Assembly (NCBI GenBank): GCA_000091205.1
Contig: AP006496.2
Length of the DNA: 64,000 bases
DNA from: Cyanidioschyzon merolae
Taxonomy: Eukaryota
Direction: 5' to 3' (one strand)
The position numbers and the translations under genes are program-made. Below, piece by piece: positions 2,961 through 49,565 of the stretch (positions within the stretch are counted from its first letter, which is position 1; each line of letters starts with the position of its first letter). Below the pieces are notes generated by a model. That model did not search any database. It was not told where the DNA came from and worked only from the letters and a program-made list of their open reading frames with translations.

Positions 2961-4548
2961 TTCCTACCAACCGAACGTGGCGAAACTGGGGCTTGATCGC
3001 TGCGATCAAGCCTCAGTTTCTGCTGCTCTGCAAGGATGAAAAAATAGCTTGAACGTTGCGGTCGTCTACAAAGTGCCAAGTTGCTTCCTGCAGGCACAGC
3101 ATCTAAAACTTTGCATAGAGTACTGACCAGCGCGCTGAACCCGGCAAATGTTCCTGCAGCAGCGCTCCGCGCGGAATCGATACACAGCCGCACGCCATTC
3201 GCCTGCTACTGCGCCTAACCTTCGACCAGAGCAGTGTGTCTATTGTTCGCATGCGAATCACTGCTCGCAGACGGAGAACCTGGTGCAGCATCCCGACTGG
3301 AATCGACGGTCGGACTGCGCGGTGCTGAACCTGCGGGTACAATTTTGTCCGTACATACAGTCCATGGACAAAGCGCGTGTCGTGGAGCGTGCGAGCGCCT
3401 TGACGCCGTCGCGCGCTGGCGAATCAACGTATCCGTTCGTAGGGCTCGGTTGGCCCAGTTCGAGAGTGTTCACTACACGAGGCGAATCGCAGTCTCGGAC
3501 CAGTCGCTGCGTTCGCCAACGCTCGGCCTGGGAATCCGCAGCGACACTGCGACGCCATGCTGTCGCTGGAACGGAGGATCGTGTGGGCGGACCACTATCC
3601 CCGAATCAATGCTTGGATAACGGTAAAGAGGACTGGGAGGATTTGGTGCGCCATGTAGGCTTGCTTCCCGGATGCCGATAACCATCACATCATTGGGGAT
3701 CAGAGGTTAGATTCCAAAATCCTACACCATTAGGAATCACACTCGCGGTCCTGAGCACTTGGTAACCATCCGACACTCGGGGATTCCTCGTTAGATTCAA
3801 CAATGCTCTACCATGACGTCTTCCTATTGCTGGGTTCCGCCTGCGTTCGCCCGGGCGCCTCGCCGTGCTCCAGATGATCGATCATGGCGGAGCGTGCCAG
3901 CTGGAATCATCGCGAGGTATCGTGCCAGGCCCCAATATTACCTTGTGTGTCAAAGGCGGCACCGCGACGCGCACCAGCGACAGAGCCTGCAGCAAGAGAT
4001 TACTCTACGTGAGCTTCCGAGCTACGACACCTGATTTTCGCTGCAGTGCGATGCGAACACGCACGTGCGAGTGCGGGGTGTCGGACACGTGTCCTTCATC
4101 GATCGGTGAGGCGTCTCGCGCGGTGCACGCAGTGCGCTAAGTGAGCGTTCCTGGGAGATCAGGCAGGCATAAGACACGACGCGCGTGCCGCCGCTGAAGG
4201 GAAACGCGATCCTGATCTCTGGTGTGTTGTTCAGCTGTAAAAGTTGTATTCGCGCTGGAGTCGAACAAAAATATAGTTTTCAGTTCGTTTTTGTTTCAAA
4301 CTTCAAACAAGTCTAGTCAAATGTTTTTTCGCAGTATATAACAGAAGGGTTTAAAGAGCGTTCAAGAAATATAAAAATAAAAAAACGGAAAAAGGAACGC
4401 TATGAAAAAGCAAATGCACGATCCTGGAGGCCCAGGTTCGCCGGCTGCCAGAAAAAAATAGTGCCGAGTCCAGAAGAAAAGGAAGAGAAGAAGGACCGAA
4501 AGGCGGAGGTCCTACGTCGAAGGCGGCAAGAAAGACGACTGTACGACG

Positions 4549-5263
4549 AGATGGTGGTGAAAACCTTTCTTCTTGGACATATCAAGGATCCGTACAGGGA
4601 AAAGTTGCGAGACGCTATCGAAAAACGTGTTGCGTCATACTCCAAGAATATTATAAAGGCGTCGTCAGGACTGATGCATTTAGCAAGGGAGATGTACGAA
4701 GACGTCGCGAACATGGAAACGGTCGAGATTCCAGACGAGTTTTTCGACAAACCTTTATTCGTCAGCTGATGCTTGGCACAGGGGAAGTGCGGAGGGAAAA
4801 TGAGCGGGTGCGCGCCCTCCACGAAAAATATCCCTTTTACAGCTTCAATGGTACTCGATACAAGGGTGACCGGGGTATTTACGGCTACGGGGCGATGAAG
4901 TACCCCACGAACCTGAAGAACCATTTGACAGAGAACTTCGAACGTTTCATGGTACGCGCCGTGTTTGCGCTGTATCCGGACATCTCTCGCAATGGAAAAT
5001 GGGCGATGATCAACGGCATCACGAGCGATCGCAAGCATGAAGATGAGGTCGAATTTGTCGACAAGAAAGCGCCAAACGAGAACACGAATGAAGCTTCTGT
5101 AATCCGTGCGGTTATACAAGAGCATCGTGCGGTACTGGGGCTGGCGTATCCAACAGACAAGATATCAGCGTTGAAAAAGATAAGGAAAGATACTATCGCC
5201 TCATCCTGCGATATTTCGTGTTTCTGGACCGAGAGCTCGAACGCAAGGCAGAAACGAAGCTAA
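4549..5263 (+). CDS. Element ORF1 (about 240 aa if read from the first ATG across the frameshift; also the ORF-track pieces 4461..4769 and 4769..5263); K/R/E-rich NLS-like N-terminus; function unknown; frameshifted in copy A
   Basis: It is conserved with copy B: ...IKASSGLMHL..., ...GDRGIYGYGAMKYPTNLKN..., ...RNGKWAMINGITSDRKHED.... In copy B the region is a single frame. Copy A has lost one nucleotide near 4752 (A: aaacctttattcg; B: aagaccttttttcgc), which gives the TGA at 4767 and the frame switch. The first in-frame ATG is 4549 (MVVKTFLLG). The tracker start at 4461 is a GTG. Confidence 0.3.
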
Positions 5264-6618
5264 GTGAAGGAAAAAATGAAGAGTGGGAGAGACGGAAGGC
5301 TGCCCTAATGGGGAAGCGCTTCGATGTGGTTCCAGTGTGCAAGATCAAGTCACATTTTGTGACTATCGACTCCGGCGTCCTCTACGGCATCATGAGGGAC
5401 ATCAGTCCGGAGTTCAGTGTCAGCAGGGAGAACTTCACCGGCGAAAACCGGGAGACGTACTTGAAGAACATCTCCAATTTCAAACGTCTGAGAGTGAACA
5501 AGCAAAAGTTGTTCACTGGGATGATCGAAACCGATGGAGTAGCCTTGTGTGTACACTATCGGCGGTTGAAGAAAGATCGGCCAGTTCCGCCCTCGGCTGC
5601 GCCCGTGACGAAGGGTGCAGAAAAGAAAGAGGCGGATCCTGAGACGCAGGAGGTGGAGGATAACGACTTTGTCGTTGAAGTGACGAAGGATGAAGATGAG
5701 AAGGAGGCGGATCCTGCGACACAGAAGGTGCAAGATAACGACCTTGTCGTTGATGCGGCGAAGGATGAAGATGAGAAGGAGGCGGATCCTGAGACGCAGG
5801 AGGTGGAGGATAACGACTTTGTCGTTTGCGCGGACCCTGGGAACACGAATATCATCACCATCGCAGCACCGAAGCGTGCGGAAGATGGTACTGATGGTAA
5901 CGTACGTCAGAAAGACATGCGAGTTTTGAGGATCTCGAGAGCGAGATACTATCGAGAATCGGGAATAATGAATGCGAGGAAGAAAATTGCTACATGGAAT
6001 GCAGGAATGAAGGATCACCTGGAAGCTTTGAGTGAGGTGACTAGCCGAAGAGCGGACTTTCAAGCTTTTCGGAAATTCATGGAAGTTTGCATTGTCCATT
6101 GGGATGCACTGTGGGAGGAGTATACCAAGGCCCGGTGGGCTCGTTTGCGTATGAATTTGTATTGTGGGAAGCAGCGGGGGTTCGCGAATTTATTCAATAA
6201 CTTGAGCGCCTTGAAGGAGGATGAAAATCAGAGGCTCGTCGTAGCATACGGAGCAGGGCGCTGGAAGACCCAAAAAGGGACTACTCCAGCTCCAACGACA
6301 AGAACATACAGGGAGTGCGCACGGCGTTTCGTTACGATACCTGTAGATGAGTTCCGAACGTCCTATGCACACCATGAACTGGGTTGTACACTTCAGAGAG
6401 TCGAGATGGAAAAGTGCCAGAGGAGCGCTGAGGAAATAGCAAAGTACGGACCGCTGACGGAGGCGCAAACGGAAAGGAGTGCGAAAGTTCGTGGACTACT
6501 CGCTTTAGTGAGTATAACTCCGGACGGGAAGAAACGTATGGAGTTTGTGAACCGAGATTTTAATGCCGCAATCAATCTACGGAAATGTGCGGTACTGGAC
6601 AAGAGACCTCCAGAGTAG
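5218..6618 (+). CDS. TnpB-like RuvC nuclease of a eukaryotic OMEGA (Fanzor-type) system, 466 aa
   Basis: Motifs in order along the protein: [15 protein letters not shown] (RuvC-I, Asp ~205); [20 protein letters not shown]...EKC (TS motif plus a degenerate H/C zinc knuckle); [18 protein letters not shown] (RuvC-III, the RDxNAAxNI hallmark of TnpB, Cas12 and Fanzor). The canonical RuvC-II Glu is not obvious; the expected position reads RLVVAYGAG. The start codon is uncertain: the tracker uses a GTG, and the frame stays open further upstream. Confidence 0.7.
5619..5830 (+). repeat. 75-bp (25-aa) acidic tandem repeat x~2.8 inside ORF2
   Basis: The unit gaggcggatcct...gatgaagatgagaag recurs at 5619, 5694 and 5769, encoding [25 protein letters not shown]. 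Copy B has a single unit. Confidence 0.85.
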
Positions 6619-6843
6619 ACAAGAGAGAACTTTATTGGACAACCTCTCAAAGTCGAACTATATGAGAAAATGTTGGAAGCAGTAGTGGGTGGCCGGTCCA
6701 AAAAGACGGGCAGGCGTCTGCACATCAGTCAGAGACGATTTGTCTAAGGCGCGTTCGCCGCCATTACTGTACGCCGCCGACGTCGTTCGACTCTCGAAAG
6801 GCGTTTAGTCGTGGCGACAAGTCTGCAGTTCCAGTTGCAAGCA

Positions 6844-7122
6844 ATGGGCAAACGCACACGGAAAGTGGGCATCTGCGGCAAGTACGGTACGAGGTATGGA
6901 GCGTCACTGCGAAAAACCGTGAAGAAGATGGAAATCACCCAGCACGCCAAGTACACGTGTCCGTTTTGCGCGAAGGATGCAGTGAAGCGGAAGGCAGTCG
7001 GCGTATGGGAGTGCAAGCGCTGTCGGAAGCGGATAGCTGGTGGCGCCTGGGTCCTGAACACCACCGCAGCGGCAACAGTGCGCACGACGATTCGTCGTCT
7101 GCGCGAGACCGTGGAGCAGTGA
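6844..7122 (+). CDS. RPL37A: 60S ribosomal protein eL43 (L37a), 92 aa, single exon
   Basis: [88 protein letters not shown] matches the eL43 consensus, including the C4 zinc ribbon. The ATG is at 6844; the tracker start at 6811 is a GTG. Confidence 0.9.
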
Positions 7123-22419: not shown

Positions 22420-23040
22420 CTCAGGTTCTTAGAGTCTTTCATTTGAATCGTGTTTCAATCCTCAAGTAAGTGTAATCAAGTGATTTTTCAGGGTTTGTAG
22501 CTGGAGCATTCAGAGTGTGTTCTTTTTAAAAAATAAACTTACGGGAATGGAAGTGAAGGATCCTGGAGGCCGTCATCGCCGGATGCCAGAGAAAAAGGAC
22601 GAAAATTTCGATCTTCTCGCCGACCATCGAGGGAGAAGTGCAAGTGACGAAGAAGAAGAAGAACAGGGTAGGTAGATGACAAAAGATGTTTGTCCGACAG
22701 GATGATGACGAGACTGTAGTCGAATAGAGGCCACGAGTTCTGGCAATCCTTGCGATGGTGAGTTCAACCAGAGGCAATGCACGCATGGAGATCGTGAACT
22801 TTGACTTTAACGCCACCATCAATACCAGACGATGTGTGGTGCTGAAGACGACTGCTGACGATATGAGGCCATCTATGTTTGTTGGGAAACCTCTCAGATG
22901 CGAAGTGTGCTAGGAGAAACTGAAAACGGCTGCAGGCGGCCAGTCAAAAAAGGCCGGGAGGCGTCTGAGAGGGAGTATATTTCTTTACACTCTATGGATC
23001 TACAGTTTTTTCGTTTCATTGAACACAAGGGTGCTTTTCC
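22420..23040 (+). mobile_element. Internally deleted (~0.6 kb) non-autonomous derivative of the Fanzor-family element, copy C
   Basis: Its 5' part (22444-22700) aligns to the leaders of A and B (ttgaatcgtgtttcaatcctcaagtaagtgtaatcaagtgattttt; ggatcctggaggcc...gccagagaaaaagg; gacgaagaagaagaagaac). Its 3' part (22780-22990) keeps a RuvC-III remnant, MEIVNFDFNATINT, and the conserved end block ggcggccagtcaaaaaaggccgggaggcgtctg. About 2 kb of internal sequence is missing. Confidence 0.55.
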
Positions 23041-41689: not shown

Positions 41690-42671
41690 TCTTCCTGCCG
41701 GCCAAAGTGTGTGTGTGCGCTAGTGCCTGCAACGCTCCTGGTACGCCTCGGGGGAGTATAACGGAGAATTGCTCGCGGGCTGGTGACCCGGGCGACGCGA
41801 TCTCCGGGAGGGGCTTGAGGCGGCGCGCGCCATTGCGCAGCGTCACGCTTTCGTCTGTTGACTGGTGTTAACGAGAAACGTCCAATAATTGTATTTAAAT
41901 GTATTAAATGATACAAAAATGAAATAGAAGCGTCAGCCTCATCTGGATGTGCTCGGAGCACGGAGACGGCTGCGACGATTTTTACGGTTTGACAGATCGC
42001 TCACATTGACCATGGATCGCAGAATGCGGAGTTGATGGATATTGGCTTTCAGGAAAGCGTCCATCATGCCGCTGCACCCTATCTTCAGTTTCCATTATTC
42101 ACGCTTCCTTTCGGCTGTACTGCTCGTCTAGTACGTTCTATCGTGCGCTGAGTTCCTGCTTTGAGCAGCCGCCGTAGCGCCTGTACCACTTGAGCGAATG
42201 CATCACGGAGACAGAACGGCTTTTTCCGTACCACTGAGGGCGTTGGCTCGAGGCGAGCATCATCCGGCACGGGGTCGGTGTATATCATCATTGTGGAAGC
42301 CTGCAAACTGCGCAGACAGACCAAGAGCTTGCGGTAATGGGAAGCGATATGCAAGGAGACCATCGCGACCAGAGCGACGCCCAGACGGTGCCTACCCGCT
42401 CCTCGTCCCAGCGTAGACTGCATTGGGGACGAGTCGCTCAGATCTCACTAAAGCACGTGCAAATGGGGCGAGCATCAAGCACGAGCGTGGGAGACTCGTC
42501 TCGCGTGCGGGACCTTCCGCACAGGCGGCAACCTTTCGACAATACGGGAAGATTTTCCCTCTTTTCATGTTTATCGTTGAGGGGGAATGAAATCGTTACA
42601 TCTTTGCTATTTAATGATTAGTCTCTTTTCTTTTTTCCGTATTGTGCGGTCGATACGCGCATCTCCATATC

Positions 42672-45160
42672 TGGCAGGCATGAGACACGACGTGCATCTC
42701 GCTGTTGAGGGGAAACGAGATCCTGACCTTTAGTGTGCAGCTCTAACCTACAAGTTGTATTATGGTTGAAGTCATAGCAGAGTATGCTCTCTCGATTCAA
42801 TCGTGTTTCAGCCCTCAAGCAAGTACATTCAAGTGATTTTCCACGATTTATAGCGGACGCATTCGAAATAGGATCTTTTTCAAAAATAAAAAAGAAAAGT
42901 AATCGAAATGGAAGTAGAGGATCCCGGAGGCGCGGTGTCACCTGCTGGTGGAAAAAAACGAAAAACAGAGTCAAACGTAGAGGAACAAGACATGACGAAG
43001 AAGCAGAAGAAGAAGGCCCGACGCCAAAGGCTGCGAGAAAGATGACAATACTACGAGATTGTTGTAAAAGCCTGTCTTCTTGGATAAATCAAGGATCTGT
43101 ACAAGCAAAAGTTACGAGAGGCCATCAGAAACTGTGTAGATTCGTACTCCATGAGTGGTATAAAGGCTTCGTCAGGGCTAATGCATTTGGTGAAGGAGCT
43201 GTATCGGGACCTGATGGAAATCAAAAGACGCGTGGTTCCGGAAGGTTTATTCAACAAGACCTTTTTTCGCCACCTGATTGTTGGCACAGGGGCAGCGTCG
43301 AGAAGAGATGAGGGAATGCACGCCCTCTACGAAAAATTCGCCGAATTCCGCTTCGACGGTACTCGATACATGGGTGATGCGGATATTTACGGATGCGGGG
43401 CAATGAAGTACCTCACGAATCTGAAGAACAATATGCTCAGTATCCTCGAACGTTTCATGTTACGTTCTATCTTTGCGCTGTACCCGGGCCTGTCTCGCAA
43501 TGGGATATGGGGCATCATCGAAAGTATCACGAACAATCGCCAGCATGAAGATAGGATCCAATCCGTCGACGACAAGACATCACGCAGGAGCAGGAATGAA
43601 GCTTCTGTATTGCGTACGGCTATACAGGAGCATCGTGCGGTACGGGGACTGGCGAATCCTGCAGAAAAGGTAACGGAAATGAAAAAAGATGTTATCACCT
43701 CATCCTAAGCTATTTCGTGCTTCTGGACCGAGAACTCGAACGCAAGGCAGAGATGGAGCTGGGCGTGAGAAAAAATGAAGAGTCGTTGGAACGGAAGGCT
43801 TTCCTGATGTGGAAGCGCTTCAACGTGGTTCCGTTGTGCAACATCAAGTCACATTTTGTGACTATCGACTCCGGAGTCGTTCATGGCATCGTAAGGGAGA
43901 TCAGTCCGGAGTTCGATGTAAGCAAGATAGAGTTCACCGATGAAACGCGGGAGACGTACTGGAAGAATATCTTCGATTTCAAACGTCTCAAAGTGAGCAA
44001 GCAAAAGCAGTTCACTGGGATGATCGAAACCGATGGAGAAGCCATCTGCGTACATCATCGGCGCTTGAAAGCAGATCGTCCAGTTCCGTCCTCGGCTTCG
44101 CCCTCGGCGAAGCATGAAGAAAAGAAGGTGGCGGATCCTGCGACACAGAAAGTGCAGGACAACGACTTTGTCGTTGGCGCGGCCCCCGGGAACTTGAATA
44201 TCACAACCATTGAAGCACCCAAGTGTGCGGAACATGGTGACGACGGCAACTGACGTCAGAAGGACATGCGTCTTGTAAAGTTCTCAAGGGCGAGGTATCG
44301 CCTAGAATCGTGAATAATGAATGCAAGGAAGAAATTTGGGACTTGGAATGCAGGAGTGAAGGAGCGCCTGGAAGCTATGAGCGCGGTGACGAACCGCGGA
44401 GCGGGCTTTGACTATTTTCGGGAATTCATGGAAGTTCGCATTGCTCATTGGGATGCGCTGTGAGGGGAGTACACCAAGTCACGATTAGCTCGTAAGTGTA
44501 TGAGACTGTACTGTGGGAAGCAGCTTCGCGTCGCGAACTTCTTCAATGAATTGAGCGCCCTCAAAGAGGATGAAAGGCGGAGGCTTGTAACAGCATACGG
44601 AGCAGGACGCTAGGCTTCCAAAAAAGGAGCATACCTGTTCCATCGACAAGAGTGTACAAGGAGTGCACACATCGTTTTCTCACGATACGGGTAGATGAGT
44701 TCTGAGCGTCGTATACACACTTCGAGCTGGGGTGTATACTCCAGAGGGTCGAGATGGAAAAGTGCCAGCGGAGCTCTAAGGATGTAAAAAAGTACGGAGC
44801 GCTGAAAGAACAGGAAATGGAACGGAGGGCACAGGTTCGAGAACTCCTTGCACTGGTGGGTACAACCAACGGGGGCAAGAAACGCATGGAGTTCGAGAAC
44901 GGTGACTTGTTCTCGCCGCAATCAATAGAACGAGATATGCGGTCCCGGAGAAGAGACCCGACGCGCTAACACGATCTAAAATTCGCAGGGCAGCCGTGCA
45001 GTGTCGAGGTGTACAACGAGAAACTGAAACCAGTAGCAGAGGGCCGGTCCAAAAAGACTGGAGGCGTCTGCACGTCAGTTGGAGATGTATTGTCTATGGC
45101 GGTCACTCGCCACTAATGTGCACCGGTTATGCAGCGTTTGATGATTGAACGGCATGCCTG
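42672..45160 (+). mobile_element. Fanzor-family element, copy B (degraded)
   Basis: It is collinear with copy A from ctggcaggcatgagacacgacg (about 4165 in copy A) through the conserved 3' block at 45031-45080. It has an AT-rich leader. Coding capacity is disrupted; see the pseudogene feature. Confidence 0.65.
43717..44969 (+). pseudogene. TnpB-like ORF2 of copy B, inactivated
   Basis: The RuvC-I Asp is replaced ([14 protein letters not shown] against [14 protein letters not shown] in A). There is a stop after ...CAEHGDDGN at 44253, and further frame breaks. The RuvC-III region has degenerated to MEFENGDLFSPQSIERD. The ORF1 homologue upstream also carries TGA and TAA stops (43043, 43085) and a TAA at 43706. 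Confidence 0.65.
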
Positions 45161-46402
45161 TGCTGGTGGTGGTGGTGCTGCGATGCGCAGGACGCACAAA
45201 CTCCGGCCTGCGTCGTTGCATCGCAAGGAGAAAAGATACGTCAGGGCAGGAGCAGGCGCCTACGAGTATCCCGCCTGTCATGTCTGCGCGGTGCAGGTTC
45301 ATTTGGTGGCTGTGCATTGGGTGCAGCGCGATGCACGCTTCTACAATGACTTGGAACTGTGTAACGCAACGATTGGCGGTAGCGGGTTGCATCGCTGTTA
45401 CTTCATGGTGCAGGTGCAGCCGCTGTATGTATCCCGCGAACTGAGGTACCACTCTCATCGATTCATGCACAAGCGCTGCGGCCATGCACTGATGCTGCGT
45501 TATGGGCGTCGGTGAATCGGCGAACAGGCTTCTCGCTCCACGGACTAACCTTCAAAAGCTTCGATCAAAAAGCCTCTGGGAGCGGGTTTTCTCGTTGCGG
45601 ACCTTAAAAGGCGATACCGTACAATTCTGTTGGCATCGTATTCGGAAATCGCAGCAGAGGAGCGCCAAGCATTCCGTGGCTGGTTTGCGAGATTCGCTGT
45701 CTGCTAGGCGAGGACTATGGACCTGAGCCACTCCCGACGCAGTGCCAGGCGAGCATGCATGCCACCCCTGGCACATCGCTATGATGCTCATATGTTCAAG
45801 GTCCAAGTATGCCCAGCCACGGCCATCGCTCCAATGCTGACTTGCTGGTGTCAACAGGACAACACCCCGTCTCCGCAAGGCTATTTCTTTATGAACCGGC
45901 CATGTCCGGAAACGTAAGCATAGCATGACAGAATCCTGTATGATATAGGATAGAGACGATGGTTTTTAATTCTCTAATCAGCAGGAGAGAGAGCGTTGCC
46001 AGCGAGCACGCTGCGCGAACAACAGGAACGGTTAGTGGTCGCTGCTACCTCTTGTCACGTAGATTATCACTCGATCACCCAGATGCACTTGTGAGCGTAG
46101 CGCCCATCATCCCTGAATTCCGAATCCTAGTGAAATGTTCCCCATGAGTGATAAAACTTGCCTGTGTAGACGATCCCCAAAGCGCCGGTGGTGCTGTAGC
46201 CGTCCACCTGCTGCGCCTCCGGCTTGCGCAGTCCTAACGCAGATGACGCGTACGCTGTCGTGCAGCGCCACAGTGTTACGCCTACCTGTTGCCGTTCGGG
46301 TTAGGTAGGTTTTGTTTTCGGGCGCTCCGTCTTGGTGTAAGCGGTAGTCAGAGGTGCTCGGCGCAGGAGCAGCGACAACCGAGTGTTGCGCGTGCGTTTC
46401 CC

Positions 46403-46819: not shown

Positions 46820-48412
46820 CACCGACGCTCTGCCATGAACCCTGAAATGCAGTGGAGGACGTCTATCGGGCGGTTTTGCTATTCTAGGAGCTTCACACCG
46901 CGACACAGAATTTGGCGGCAGAATAAGTGCTATACGATATGCAGCGTTTTGCGAACGACCTTGCATGTGACTTGCCGTTATCCATCAGAGCAGAGAATCC
47001 TGGAGTATCTGCACTAGAACGCTCTGTTTGTTTTTGTTGTTTTCTTGAAGGAATTCAACGACGGCGTTCATGGTGTTGATTGGAGAAGTGTTGCTGAAAG
47101 CGTCGATGTTGTCTGTGCTAGCTGGAAAATTATCTCGTTATGCATTCAGGTCAGTCGATCAACGGTCAGCTGGACGATGAGCCGCCCTTCTCGACGTGGG
47201 TAACCTGCACATCGTGCACCTAAACCATGTTTTATCAAAATCTTTCTTTACGATCGTCTCCTCGCCAATTCGTTCCACTCCATTCGTTCTTTATCAAAAA
47301 AGACCAAAGCAGCAGGCGTTGAAGTTTGCGTATCGTTGATACGAACGGAGATGAAGACCAGGATGGGCAAAGAAAATAGCGCGTTTGTATGGGAGACCAT
47401 CGCGCGTTGAATACGACGCAATCTACTTTGTGCTGAAACGCGAATGTCTATTACAAGAGCAACGGGTTTTCGCGTCACTCGAAGACATCGCATTCAGCAG
47501 AAGAGGTAGACCTTTACATAGGCTATCAAAGAGAGGAGACCATTGTTCGTCGAGAAGCGCATTGCGTGCATTCCGAAAACGTTGGACTCAGCGGCAATTC
47601 AGTCGTCTCGTCGACGACAAGTCGCAAACGGACCGAATTTTGTAACACCCAATCCATGTCGAAGCAATTCCTGGCTTCTTTCTTCACATTCTTCCGTCCT
47701 GCTCATACACAATTCGGTTTTTCATCATTCAAATGCAGCTAAAGAATACGCAGCTCAGATTGGCATAGATCTGCTCTTCGTGCCAGCGATTGCTCTCTGG
47801 GTCAATCCAATCGCGGGCGTTTTCTACGTTGTCAAACGCCACGTTTGCGCCCACGGATCCATAGACGAGTCGTTGGCATCAGTGATACCGTTCTTCGAGT
47901 AAATATGCTTCGGCACGTCGTTCTGAATCTTCACCAGTTGGCAACTGGTCCGTTGTTCGTCAGTATGAGTGCGGAAAGGAGCGAAACGACGCGTCCCGGT
48001 TCGCGGGCGTCCTCGGGACGGAGGAGGTGACGGAAAAGTAACTGGCGAATTGAAGATACATATATTGAAAAGGTGCGCAGCCGTTCCACAGTGAACCTAG
48101 TGCATATGCGTGCGGTGCGAAAAACGAATAAGACGTGTAGCGGTCATAACCATACCAATTCGTCAGGAGGACGATAAGGAATAGAAGGAGCTGGTCTCTG
48201 CGAGCAGATATGAAGCTTTCGAACAACTTTACGATTAGCGTTGGCGAGACTCATTTGTGGTTTTTCCTACACACTGAGAAAATAAGAAACAAATGGACAT
48301 GAACGATAGAACCCGATGGAATATCACGATTAATGCACGTTTCGAACACCAGGACAGGCTCGAGTAACCACCCCGTATTCTGAACCGTTCGTAATAGAAT
48401 AAGGGAATTTGT

Positions 48413-48900
48413 TTGCTGAAAGGCGTCAAGGCCTTCGCCCTACCGTTAGATCACGAGGGCGGAGCCAAATACCTGAACCGTAACCAGATGACGCCGCTCA
48501 GCTCTTCATGGACTTGGTATCATCGAGAGTCGGGCTTGATGGACCCCAGGAAGCACATCGCCAACTGGAATGACGACGACACGGCCTACCTTGATGCTCT
48601 GGGCACCATGCCATGCAGGCGCGGACACTTTGAACGCCTCGTCTGGAGAATACGTGAGAGCGCGCCTGGGCCGCCAACAGTTTCGGTTACAAGGATTCGC
48701 GACGTTTGCATTCGTCAACGTCTCTAATGACTTGGAAAAAGAAATGACCCACTGGTTGTGTCATTTGCTCGTAGCCAATCGCGCTGGACGTGCTGTAGCG
48801 CGCAAAGGCTGCACTCCTGGGGCCCCCGCCAGCACCCGAATCGAGTGCTGGAATCTCTTCTGTACGATTCGCATCGATGCGCTCTAGATGACGTACACGT
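48413..48900 (+). pseudogene. Divergent TnpB/Fanzor-like relic, copy D
   Basis: ORF 48413..48727 contains WYHRESGLMDPRKHIANWNDDDTAYLDAL. The counterparts are [28 protein letters not shown] in copy A and RARYRLES*IMNARKKFGTWNAGVKERLEAM in copy B. The ~130 aa that follow in A are collapsed here, and no RuvC-III motif is recognisable. Confidence 0.3.
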
Positions 48901-49565
48901 TTCAAGATTCGAGGAAGACGCTGAAGCAGGCTGAGCAGGAAAGCTTCAAACAGAGCTGAATGCACGAGATGGTGTCCTTGAAGACGAACAGACGTCAAAT
49001 GAGGATACAATAGAATAAGACAGGCCTGCACGGGGGTGTGTGCGAGCACCACCAACGATGCGCGCAAGCATTTTATGCACCAAGTCTTCAGCGCCTCAAT
49101 CAACATCCGAAAATATCTCGTGCTTCTGGAGCGTTCACACGCTTTAATTCAAGCAAGCCTTGGACGGAAGCGTTGAGTACTCTGAGTAGACGTTATGCGG
49201 AAACGCTGAAAACTTGTTATGAAAAAACCAGTCGCCAGTACAGTGGCAGTTGGATGCGCACCCGAAGCAAGGCACTGGTACAGTCCGCTTCGACAAGCCA
49301 GAGGCGCTGGACCGCCGCATGCATATACCTGGAATTTGATTCCTGGTTCATCGATAGACGATTATGGTGCTCCATGTTTCGATGTGACTTAGAAGCGGAC
49401 CGGTTCAACGCATGAGTGCCAAAATCGCAGCAGTATACACCAGAATGCACTAGGATATAGCGGCAAGAAAACAACAAGGATACAGGACCTTGTCAAGAGA
49501 TGGAGTGAACTATGGTCTTTTACATTTCGCCGTCGCGCTTTTTCTCGAAGAGTTTGTTTCATGGA

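Follow-up and report, generated by a model that had tools for sequence, protein, structure and literature searches.

Copies of the Fanzor1 element in the window

The window (the whole stretch of DNA that was analysed, 64,000 nucleotides from Cyanidioschyzon merolae) contains three related copies, A, B and C, of an element carrying a Fanzor1 gene, all on the plus strand (Table 1). The element family is CMe-1A, for which a 3169-bp consensus has been described from C. merolae, with ~150 copies that are each ~80% identical to the consensus, without terminal inverted repeats (TIRs) and with an undetermined TSD (Bao & Jurka 2013, Mobile DNA 4:12, PMC3627910). The copy number, the divergence, the absent TIRs and the undetectable TSDs of the family studied here all agree with that description. 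The protein tail of the published consensus is identical to the tail of the family consensus derived here, and the published DNA consensus, which ends in ...GTCTAGGGCGCGTTTGCCGCCACTACTGTACACCGCTGGCGGCAGCGTTTTTCTTTTGAAAGGCG, aligns at its 3' end base for base with window positions 6613-6808, with few differences, among them a TTG where copy A has TAG. Upstream of copy B lies sequence that agrees with the published 5' start. When compared with this consensus, copy A has another 5' module and is 5'-truncated.

Copies A (4158-6776) and B (42669-45125) are aligned by blastn with 74-75% identity. The deletion junction of copy C is also found in a second copy, at L015:6688-7104. At least 262 related stretches are present in metagenome contigs, and 57 non-redundant 3' ends were analysed. 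One metagenome contig, L029, covers the same locus as copy A at 98% identity. An intron-less eL43 gene lies directly after copy A. A fourth, distant Fanzor fragment is found at 46967-49137, with the remnants of a DDE_3 gene upstream. A search with nhmmer, using a profile of the 3' UTR, found no further right ends, whether solo or ghost, in the rest of the window.

Table 1. Positions of the element copies and of the features of copy A in the window
Feature	Position	Strand	Characteristics and basis
Copy A, CMe-1A-family Fanzor1 element	3904..6816	+	Decayed, 5'-truncated compared with longer relatives; class-1 homology from 3904; pairwise alignments end no later than ~6816-6825
Fanzor1 coding region of copy A	4403..6747	+	Pseudogene with frame breaks and a premature stop; translation, tblastn with P0006/P0002, homologues, published CMe-1A protein
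Premature TAG	6616..6618	+	Consensus TTG/CTG, Leu; GAGTTGACA in the published consensus, GAGTAGACA in copy A
5' strand of a predicted long-range helix, GCAGUAGUGG	6679..6688	+	Predicted to pair with 6761-6770, the sole connection of the block to the RNA structure; RNAalifold on 51 copies, MFE of 6676-6825; compensatory changes not convincing
Conserved block	6680..6729	+	Codons for AVVGGRSKKTGRRLHIS, basic C-terminal Fanzor1 tail; codon-position pattern of changes
Family stop codon	6745..6747	+	TAA in A, TAG in the consensus; after ...WRRFV
SL1-like small GC hairpin	6748..6762	+	GGCG..CGCC in A; GGCGGG-UUU-CUCGCC in many copies; in-family pairing, compensatory stems across lineages
Conserved linker, consensus ACTACTGTAC	6763..6771	+	ACTG(T/G)A also 3' of the hairpin in ~44%-identity relatives
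Long terminal hairpin (SL2-like)	6772..6816	+	Inner stem CGUCGUUCGA/UCGAAAGGCG; outer stem CGCCGC/GUGGCG; ends at the element right end
Host DNA 3' of the right end, candidate guide source	6817..6836	+	Conservation 0.33 beyond ~6811-6825; putative, by analogy with SpuFz1
Copy C, short derivative of a divergent subfamily	22430..23008	+	5' UTR with the first codons, followed by the final ~85 codons (block at 22930-22967) and an unrelated 3' tail of its own
Copy B, full-length but heavily decayed CMe-1A	41987..45175	+	Block 45031-45079; stop mutated to TAT at 45095-45097; SL1 45098-45111; terminal hairpin ~45120-45163

The gene is a Fanzor1

The gene family is a true Fanzor1, as is seen from the profile homology, the RuvC triad and the predicted model of a relative, and the preliminary description of this DNA was correct in recognizing a Fanzor/TnpB-type gene. 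The RuvC motifs DPGNTN, VDEFRTS and NRDFNAAIN are found in the translation of copy A, and across 71 relatives the catalytic columns D421 and D659 are invariant and E592 is nearly invariant. Relatives were collected by a search of 5.8 billion proteins, which gave 181 sequences, and by another search that started from P0119, a distant relative, which gave 82 diverse proteins. The profile of the 71-sequence family matches the solved chains of PpFz1 (9cf0, E = 3.3e-20), SpuFz1 (8gkh, E = 5.1e-14) and GtFz1 (9cer, E = 0.0075); PDB searches with single sequences or with a 15-sequence profile gave no match. Pfam entry PF07282 (Cas12f1-like TNB) is matched by 12 of the 71 relatives. At the zinc-finger/TNB position the window protein and CMe-1A have HH..C..C instead of C4, and a Pfam scan of the window protein and three homologues gave no match. 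The AF2 model was calculated for P0119, which is ~44% identical to the window family (pLDDT 88, pTM 0.85). When this model is used as a Foldseek query, SpuFz1 (Saito et al. 2023, PDB 8GKH; Xu et al. 2024) is the best match (E = 4e-17, TM 0.62/0.72), followed by PpFz, GtFz and Cas12f. The protein identity between SpuFz1 and this family is only ~15%.

The conserved block is part of the coding tail

The preliminary description had drawn attention to a 50-nt block common to copies A, B and C, described as hyper-conserved and non-coding. Its position in copy B, 45031-45080, is borne out (45031-45079/80), whereas the string that was quoted for copy A, cagtag..ggccggtccaaaaagac..aggcgtctgcac.tcagt, is read from the sequence at 6680-6729, 10 nt to the right of the reported 6670-6719. 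A conserved stretch is indeed present in the three copies, but neither its coordinates in copies A and C, nor its degree of identity, nor the hyper-conservation, nor its non-coding status could be upheld.

The block at 6680-6729 is part of an ORF in a decayed CMe-1A copy. Apart from the TAG at 6616, the frame of copy A is continuous through the block when the ORF 5218-6618 is translated onward, and the same frame is recognizable in copies B and C. In intact relatives and in the published CMe-1A consensus the frame continues as far as ...AVVGGRSKKTGRRLHVSWRRFV*, where it stops at 6745-6747, and most of the 40 homologues with readable tails cross the block and end in ...GRRLHVSWRRFV* (GGRSKKxGRRLHVSWRRFV) or a close variant. 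The stop after WRRFV is conserved in the 57 non-redundant DNA copies. The premature TAG lies 21 codons upstream of the block and is followed by 43 codons, and its presence explains why the tail of copy A was mistaken for non-coding DNA. The codon concerned is hypervariable in the 57 copies (TAG 10, CTG 10, TTG 9, TGG 9 and TCG 8).

The residues encoded by the block, AVVGGRSKKTGRRLH, form the basic part of a C-terminal extension of ~40 residues. In the solved Fanzor1 proteins, SpuFz1 among them, the chain stops within a few residues of the RPxxFSR motif (RPPE*TREN in the window) and this tail is lacking; the extension is therefore family-specific. Divergent subfamilies keep the GGRSKKxGRRL motif and then diverge. 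The changes in the block are distributed over codon positions 1, 2 and 3 as 102/88/159 (p = 6e-6), whereas the distribution in the true 3' UTR is flat (262/269/280). In the last eight codons the third-position excess that is typical of coding sequence is absent (108/68/60). The block is conserved in copies A, B and C in the manner of protein-coding DNA on which purifying selection has acted in the past.

Conservation of the block among the copies

The identity of copies A and B in the block had been given as ~90%, against ~70% for the neighbouring coding DNA. The measured values are 39/50 (78%) for 6670-6719 and, by a hand count on the A-B alignment, 43/50 (86%) for 6680-6729, and the identity of the coding DNA is 78% overall. 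For 50-nt windows of the A-B alignment the mean identity is 0.746, the 95th percentile is 0.86 and the 99th percentile is 0.90. The block at 6680-6729 is thus at about the 95th percentile, and windows of the ORF at 5324-5330 and 5492-5500 reach 0.90-0.94, above the block, which shows that the block is not exceptional. This is also in agreement with the family-wide data, where over 53 non-redundant copies the columns of 6670-6719 have a mean conservation of 0.868, compared with 0.88-0.905 for the upstream ORF and 0.86-0.91 for the rest of the gene, such that there is no excess that could be called hyper-conservation.

With average family-wide conservation, and with 42% of the 50-nt A-B windows equalling or exceeding the similarity found at 6670-6719, it could be argued that the block has nothing specific to it and merely reflects the comparison of one copy with two badly decayed ones. 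We consider such a sampling effect very unlikely when weighed against the rank of the block at 6680-6729 and against the pattern in the divergent copies, where the homology of C-type copies, L062 and L084 runs through GGCCGGTC.AAAAAG..GG.AGGCGTCT and is lost directly after it. An end of homology right after AGGCGTCT indicates a conserved peptide motif.

Copy C itself retains the block, as had been noted, but its homology to copy A is lost right after GGCGTCTG, at 22967, and does not extend to the reported 22988. The block is kept in copy C because the last ~85 codons are kept. Its retention had been taken to fit a role as guide-RNA scaffold, which is a weak argument, as copy C keeps the coding end, with a different 3' tail and without the hairpins of the main family. 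The idea that copy C is a mobilizable miniature that keeps an omegaRNA was considered and rejected, since the 3' UTR of the main family is absent and the tail is a different one.

The right end of the element

The real non-coding right end is the segment of ~70 nt after the family stop, 6748-6816. In the alignment of 57 copies the column conservation is ~0.8 from the stop at 6745-6747 to ~6780 and 0.62-0.67 to ~6810 (0.62-0.81 over the two zones), after which it falls to 0.33, the random level. Pairwise alignments between copies end no later than ~6816-6825, and the published CMe-1A consensus ends at the equivalent of 6808. The right end is probably ~8-15 nt past the end of the published consensus, where the terminal hairpin has a GT-rich 3' strand. 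The loss of homology a short way downstream of the block was therefore correctly seen in kind, but the family-wide boundary is at ~6808-6825 and not at 6760-6800. With the structured segment running from the stop to ~6816, the right boundary and any guide are located 20-60 nt further to the right than had been proposed.

When the sequences 3' of the segment are compared across insertions they are unrelated beyond the terminal hairpin, as a guide region would be, but the comparison resolved no conserved TAM-like motif in the flanks; the one feature of note is a T-rich run that precedes the published left end. A variable flank may be regarded as a necessary but insufficient sign of a guide region. 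Terminal inverted repeats were looked for in copies A, B and C and none was found, and in a TSD test on 11 full-length loci the two flanks of a locus resemble each other no more closely than flanks paired across loci (p = 0.25). The GCTGCGA that is common to both flanks of copy B is within chance expectation. On the left, alternative 5' modules make up a mosaic in which the upstream sequences fall into five or more classes, the starts are staggered and repeats are nested, and from these classes a single left end is not definable for the family copies.

Predicted hairpins of the 3' non-coding segment

The segment downstream of the stop is predicted to fold into a small hairpin (SL1-like), a conserved linker and a long terminal hairpin (SL2-like) (Table 1). 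SL1 has 4 bp in copy A and 4-6 bp in general (plus 3 in some folds); all six pairs are formed in 17/49 copies and four of the six in 20/49. The long SL2 is predicted in nearly all copies by per-copy folding. For its inner stem there are two versions, CGTCGTTCGA-CTT-TCGAACGGCG and AACGTTTTTC-TTTT-GAAAGRCGTT, which differ at 7/25 aligned positions and each provide ~10 bp through a register shift; copy A has the 'type I' stem and the published CMe-1A consensus the 'type II' stem. In the outer stem a GTACACC-like strand pairs with a GT-rich, GGTGTG-like motif, with at least 6/7 pairs within 28 nt in 41% of the copies, compared with 12% further out (p = 1e-4). With MAFFT and RNAalifold only 3 pairs are obtained for the 3' UTR, because the two types of inner stem are in different registers; subsequently, per-copy folding and a loop-anchored comparison were used. 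A comparison of the 3' segment with Rfam gave no matching family.

The predicted folding is more stable at the right end than elsewhere. For the last 150 nt of the element the median folding z is -2.0 (49 copies), when compared with +0.2, -0.4 and 0.0 for two control windows of the ORF and for the flank, and with an intermediate value (z = -1.2) for 6481-6630, the ORF window that adjoins the 150-nt stretch. In copy A the values are -2.07 for 6745-6825 and -2.47 for 6676-6825, whereas 6670-6719 alone has z = +0.27. Better-preserved copies reach z = -2.4 to -5.1 with the same two-hairpin layout. The minus strand of the 3' UTR of copy A folds as well as the plus strand. Over the family the plus strand is the more stable one in 42/50 copies, a difference that is confounded by the G+T richness.

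Covariation within the family is weak: a duplex test of own arm versus other arm gives p = 0.025, and for SL1 and P3 82% of the cells pair versus 81% in shuffles, although the double-change cells stand out (11 versus 5, 1/500). The weakness is explained by most copies being neutrally decaying pseudogenes. In a comparison of four lineages, aligned by hand, the SL1 stem directly 5' of ACTG(T/G)A is GGCGGG/CTCGCC in the family studied here, and AAGGGG/CCCCTT and AGAGGA/TTCTCT in relatives of ~44% protein identity, and these stems are entirely different in sequence yet complementary in each case.

Comparison with known systems

The omegaRNA of SpuFz1 has a 75-nt scaffold and a variable extension of 14-15 nt (PMC10432273). 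The solved Fz1 RNAs start with a 7-bp SL1, and in SpuFz1 and PpFz1 there is one further stem-loop before the guide (PMC11423790). There are also differences. The elements of SpuFz1 carry inverted repeats of 30 nt as well as a CA(TA) motif, neither of which is found here, and it is for SpuFz1 that expression and cleavage have been shown. The short non-autonomous 'ghost' copies of SpuFz1, of ~550 nt, are comparable in size to copy C (PMC10432273).

The omegaRNA (reRNA) of ISDra2 TnpB is derived from the right end, takes its guide from the flank and has a scaffold that overlaps the 3' end of the gene (PMC10432273); the preliminary description had this model in view. ISDra2 is bacterial, in an IS200/IS605 context with TnpA, and its long overlap with the ORF was shown experimentally, whereas here there is only a predicted helix.

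The P0119 group consists of metagenomic two-gene elements, with a Tc1/mariner DDE_3 transposase and a Fanzor1, whose Fanzor1 proteins are ~44% identical to those of the CMe-1A family over the full length. Downstream of the stop both groups have the same hairpin-ACTG(T/G)A motif. The P0119 group, however, keeps its transposase, ends in ...GAGTATA next to TA and has 3' UTRs of 125-185 nt, and its proteins have a shorter tail, stopping ~25 residues earlier, before the block. All of the distant relatives have the DDE_3 (Tc1/mariner-type) transposase just upstream and the same ...GAGTATA end, and remnants of a DDE_3 gene are also found upstream of some members of the CMe-1A family. Fanzor1 proteins associated with Mariner elements, PUl-1 and PGv-1, have been described before (Bao & Jurka, PMC3627910). 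A pairing of the ACTGTA linker with a TIR-proximal TACAGT in the distant relatives was also considered, and was discarded as it is not conserved in L086.

A candidate guide-RNA scaffold and its alternatives

The layout and the size of 6748-6816 match those of the known Fz1 omegaRNAs, which points to a candidate scaffold in this segment and a candidate guide from ~6817. The segment is likely a better candidate for the omegaRNA scaffold and the right end than the block is. The preliminary interpretation, in which the block itself was the omegaRNA scaffold or right end, is thus partly supported: the family and the general location were correct, and a structured, conserved right-end segment with unrelated DNA beyond it does exist, but the segment that was chosen, a coding tail that alone is unstructured, and the boundary were wrong. 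Taken together, we regard it as probable that the block is the CMe-1A coding tail and that the adjoining 6748-6816 is the right end and candidate omegaRNA scaffold.

By analogy with the solved Fanzor1 complexes, the 3' segment would be transcribed as part of the 3' end of the Fanzor1 mRNA or be derived from that end, and would form the omegaRNA scaffold, in the order SL1, SL2 and guide, with the next ~15-20 nt of the flank (from ~6817 in copy A) supplying the guide. Where a copy still has an intact ORF, the nuclease would be expected to cut sites that match the flank.

The block could still belong to the scaffold if the latter starts inside the ORF, with the sequence having a dual use and being conserved for RNA as well as for protein. 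A long-range helix of 10-12 bp is predicted between GCAGUAGUGG (6679-6688) and CCAYUACUGU (6761-6770), with 76-96% of the copies paired, and a second pairing between GGCGUCU (6713-6719) and AGACGNU (6733-39), in which 83% are paired, with an alternation of G-U, G-C and A-U at two pairs. The fold of the 150-nt window of copy A that includes the block and the short C-type derivative, which retains ~250 nt of 3' coding sequence, are in agreement with such an arrangement, and an overlap of omegaRNA and ORF has precedent in ISDra2 TnpB and in GtFz1, where it covers 17 codons (PMC10432273). The predicted helices and the lost periodicity of the last eight codons indicate that a 5' RNA extension overlapping the ORF is possible. 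Against this, the conservation of the block is not above that of the ORF and its coding periodicity is kept, and alone it has no stable fold. In copies where the 3' strand of the helix is altered (CACCACTG, CACTATTG, CATTTCTG), the 5' strand has not changed to match, and the relatives that have the ACTG linker without the protein tail are also without the upstream complement. In addition, SL1 is the first element in the solved Fz1 RNAs, and the chance of finding a 9-nt complement within ~100 nt is ~0.02, which is not negligible given the regions examined. We therefore consider a dual use of the block unlikely. The full version of this idea is somewhat less likely still; in it the scaffold, of ~140 nt, would begin in the C-terminal coding extension, through pairing of the AVVGG codons to the ACUACUG linker and of the RRL codons to the WRR codons, and the family of this thermoacidophilic red alga, in which intact ORFs are still present, would provide an active, possibly heat-tolerant RNA-guided nuclease.

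It is also conceivable that the hairpins of 6748-6816 are not a guide scaffold but signals acting in cis, either as a transposition end recognized as DNA, like the subterminal hairpins of the Helitron or IS200/IS605 type, or as an element for mRNA 3'-end formation or stability. The terminal hairpin abuts the exact end of the homology, the element is without TIRs, and Fanzor1 genes are known inside Helitron2 transposons with terminal hairpins (Bao & Jurka, PMC3627910). The equal folding of the minus strand of copy A and the weak in-family covariation would also fit such signals. The order of small hairpin, linker, long hairpin and variable flank within ~70 nt is, however, the layout of the SpuFz1 and PpFz1 omegaRNAs, the stems of the sense strand are rich in G-U pairs, and the plus strand is the more stable one in 42/50 copies, which is in part a matter of composition. 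Moreover, SL1 and ACTG are shared with relatives that have Tc1/mariner-type transposon ends, so that the motif tracks the Fanzor gene and not the transposon end. The roles of transposition end and guide scaffold overlap in any case in Fanzor/TnpB systems. On balance a purely cis-acting role appears doubtful, and the adjacent ~70-nt segment may be considered a reasonable candidate omegaRNA scaffold of a known kind.

Implications for the CMe-1A family

With a known family and an ordinary coding tail, the finding of the conserved block itself matters little. Guide RNAs of Fanzor1 at the 3' end of the element have been known since 2023. The CMe-1A consensus, including the block as coding sequence, was published in 2013; the RNA of CMe-1A was outside the scope of that paper (Bao & Jurka). 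What is gained here is, first, a correction, in that the block is coding, its coordinates in copy A have to be moved by 10 nt, and the element ends on the right at ~6808-6816. Second, a concrete omegaRNA candidate can be proposed for CMe-1A, from the stop to ~70 nt downstream, and none has been described in the literature that was searched. Third, the hairpin-ACTG motif is common to the CMe-1A family and to distant relatives carried by Tc1/mariner elements. Copies A and B are dead as genes, and their scaffolds are relics. If an intact copy from this alga of hot acid springs were active, it might, speculatively, be of interest to those seeking compact nucleases.

Coding region and insertion site of copy A

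In the decayed copy A of the CMe-1A-family Fanzor1 element, the repeat units of the ORF, which are 86-93% identical to one another, encode an acidic repeat (..KEADPxTQEVxDNDFVV..), and the number of these units differs across the family, copy B having one and the related proteins P0003 and P0006 having more. The codon after the residues RPPE (window 6616-6618) is hypervariable among 57 family copies, being most often TAG (10), CTG (10), TTG (9), TGG (9), or TCG (8). This position is the C terminus of several database "proteins" and is also close to the natural end of other Fanzor1 proteins. The gene of ribosomal protein eL43 starts about 28 nt past the right end of copy A, and the transposon is therefore located in the promoter or 5′ UTR of this gene. 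The same layout is preserved, at 98% identity, on the metagenome contig L029.

Features in the window
Feature	Position	Strand	Remark
Tandem repeat	5605-5826		3 units of 75 nt, within Fanzor1 ORF of copy A
eL43 (L37a) gene	6845-7122	+	intron-less
Two-gene remnant	46967-49137	+	DDE_3, then Fanzor1
DDE_3 (Tc1/mariner-type) transposase remnant	46967-47950	+	
Distant Fanzor1, partial	48431-49137	+	~35% identity to relatives

Left ends and short derivatives of the family

Upstream of ~4128, the 5′ sequence of the family falls into at least five unrelated classes with staggered start points, as seen when considering window 3904-4158 and the loci L036, L049, L066, L015, and L017. In longer relatives, the class of copy A runs on into DDE_3 remnants, and the 5′ module of copy B is the published CMe-1A/TE-N2_CMe module. 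In window 41975-41990 and about 20 loci, most independent insertions have a T-rich motif (TGATTTTTYTC-like) before the start of the published CMe-1A consensus, and the sequence to its left is unrelated between insertions. This motif reflects either a true left end about 10 nt outside the consensus or a T-rich target preference. The C-type short derivative is present at two or more sites (window 22430-23008 and L015:6688-7104), with an identical internal deletion junction in both copies. Its own 3′ tail bears a small hairpin, whose stems differ compensatorily (GAGTA..TACACTC versus GGGTA..TACCC).

Distant DDE_3-Fanzor1 elements

The right ends of the distant elements, compared 3′ of the Fanzor1 gene at L002, L086, L088, L089, L091, and L095, share the terminus ...GAGTATA (adjoining TA). 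They also have an internal motif in common, TCTATATAC, which lies 50-70 nt from the end. Sample names suggest a brine origin for several of the contigs carrying such elements. All distant relatives have DDE_3 followed by Fanzor1, and this order, as found at 46967-49137, is the ancestral two-gene layout.
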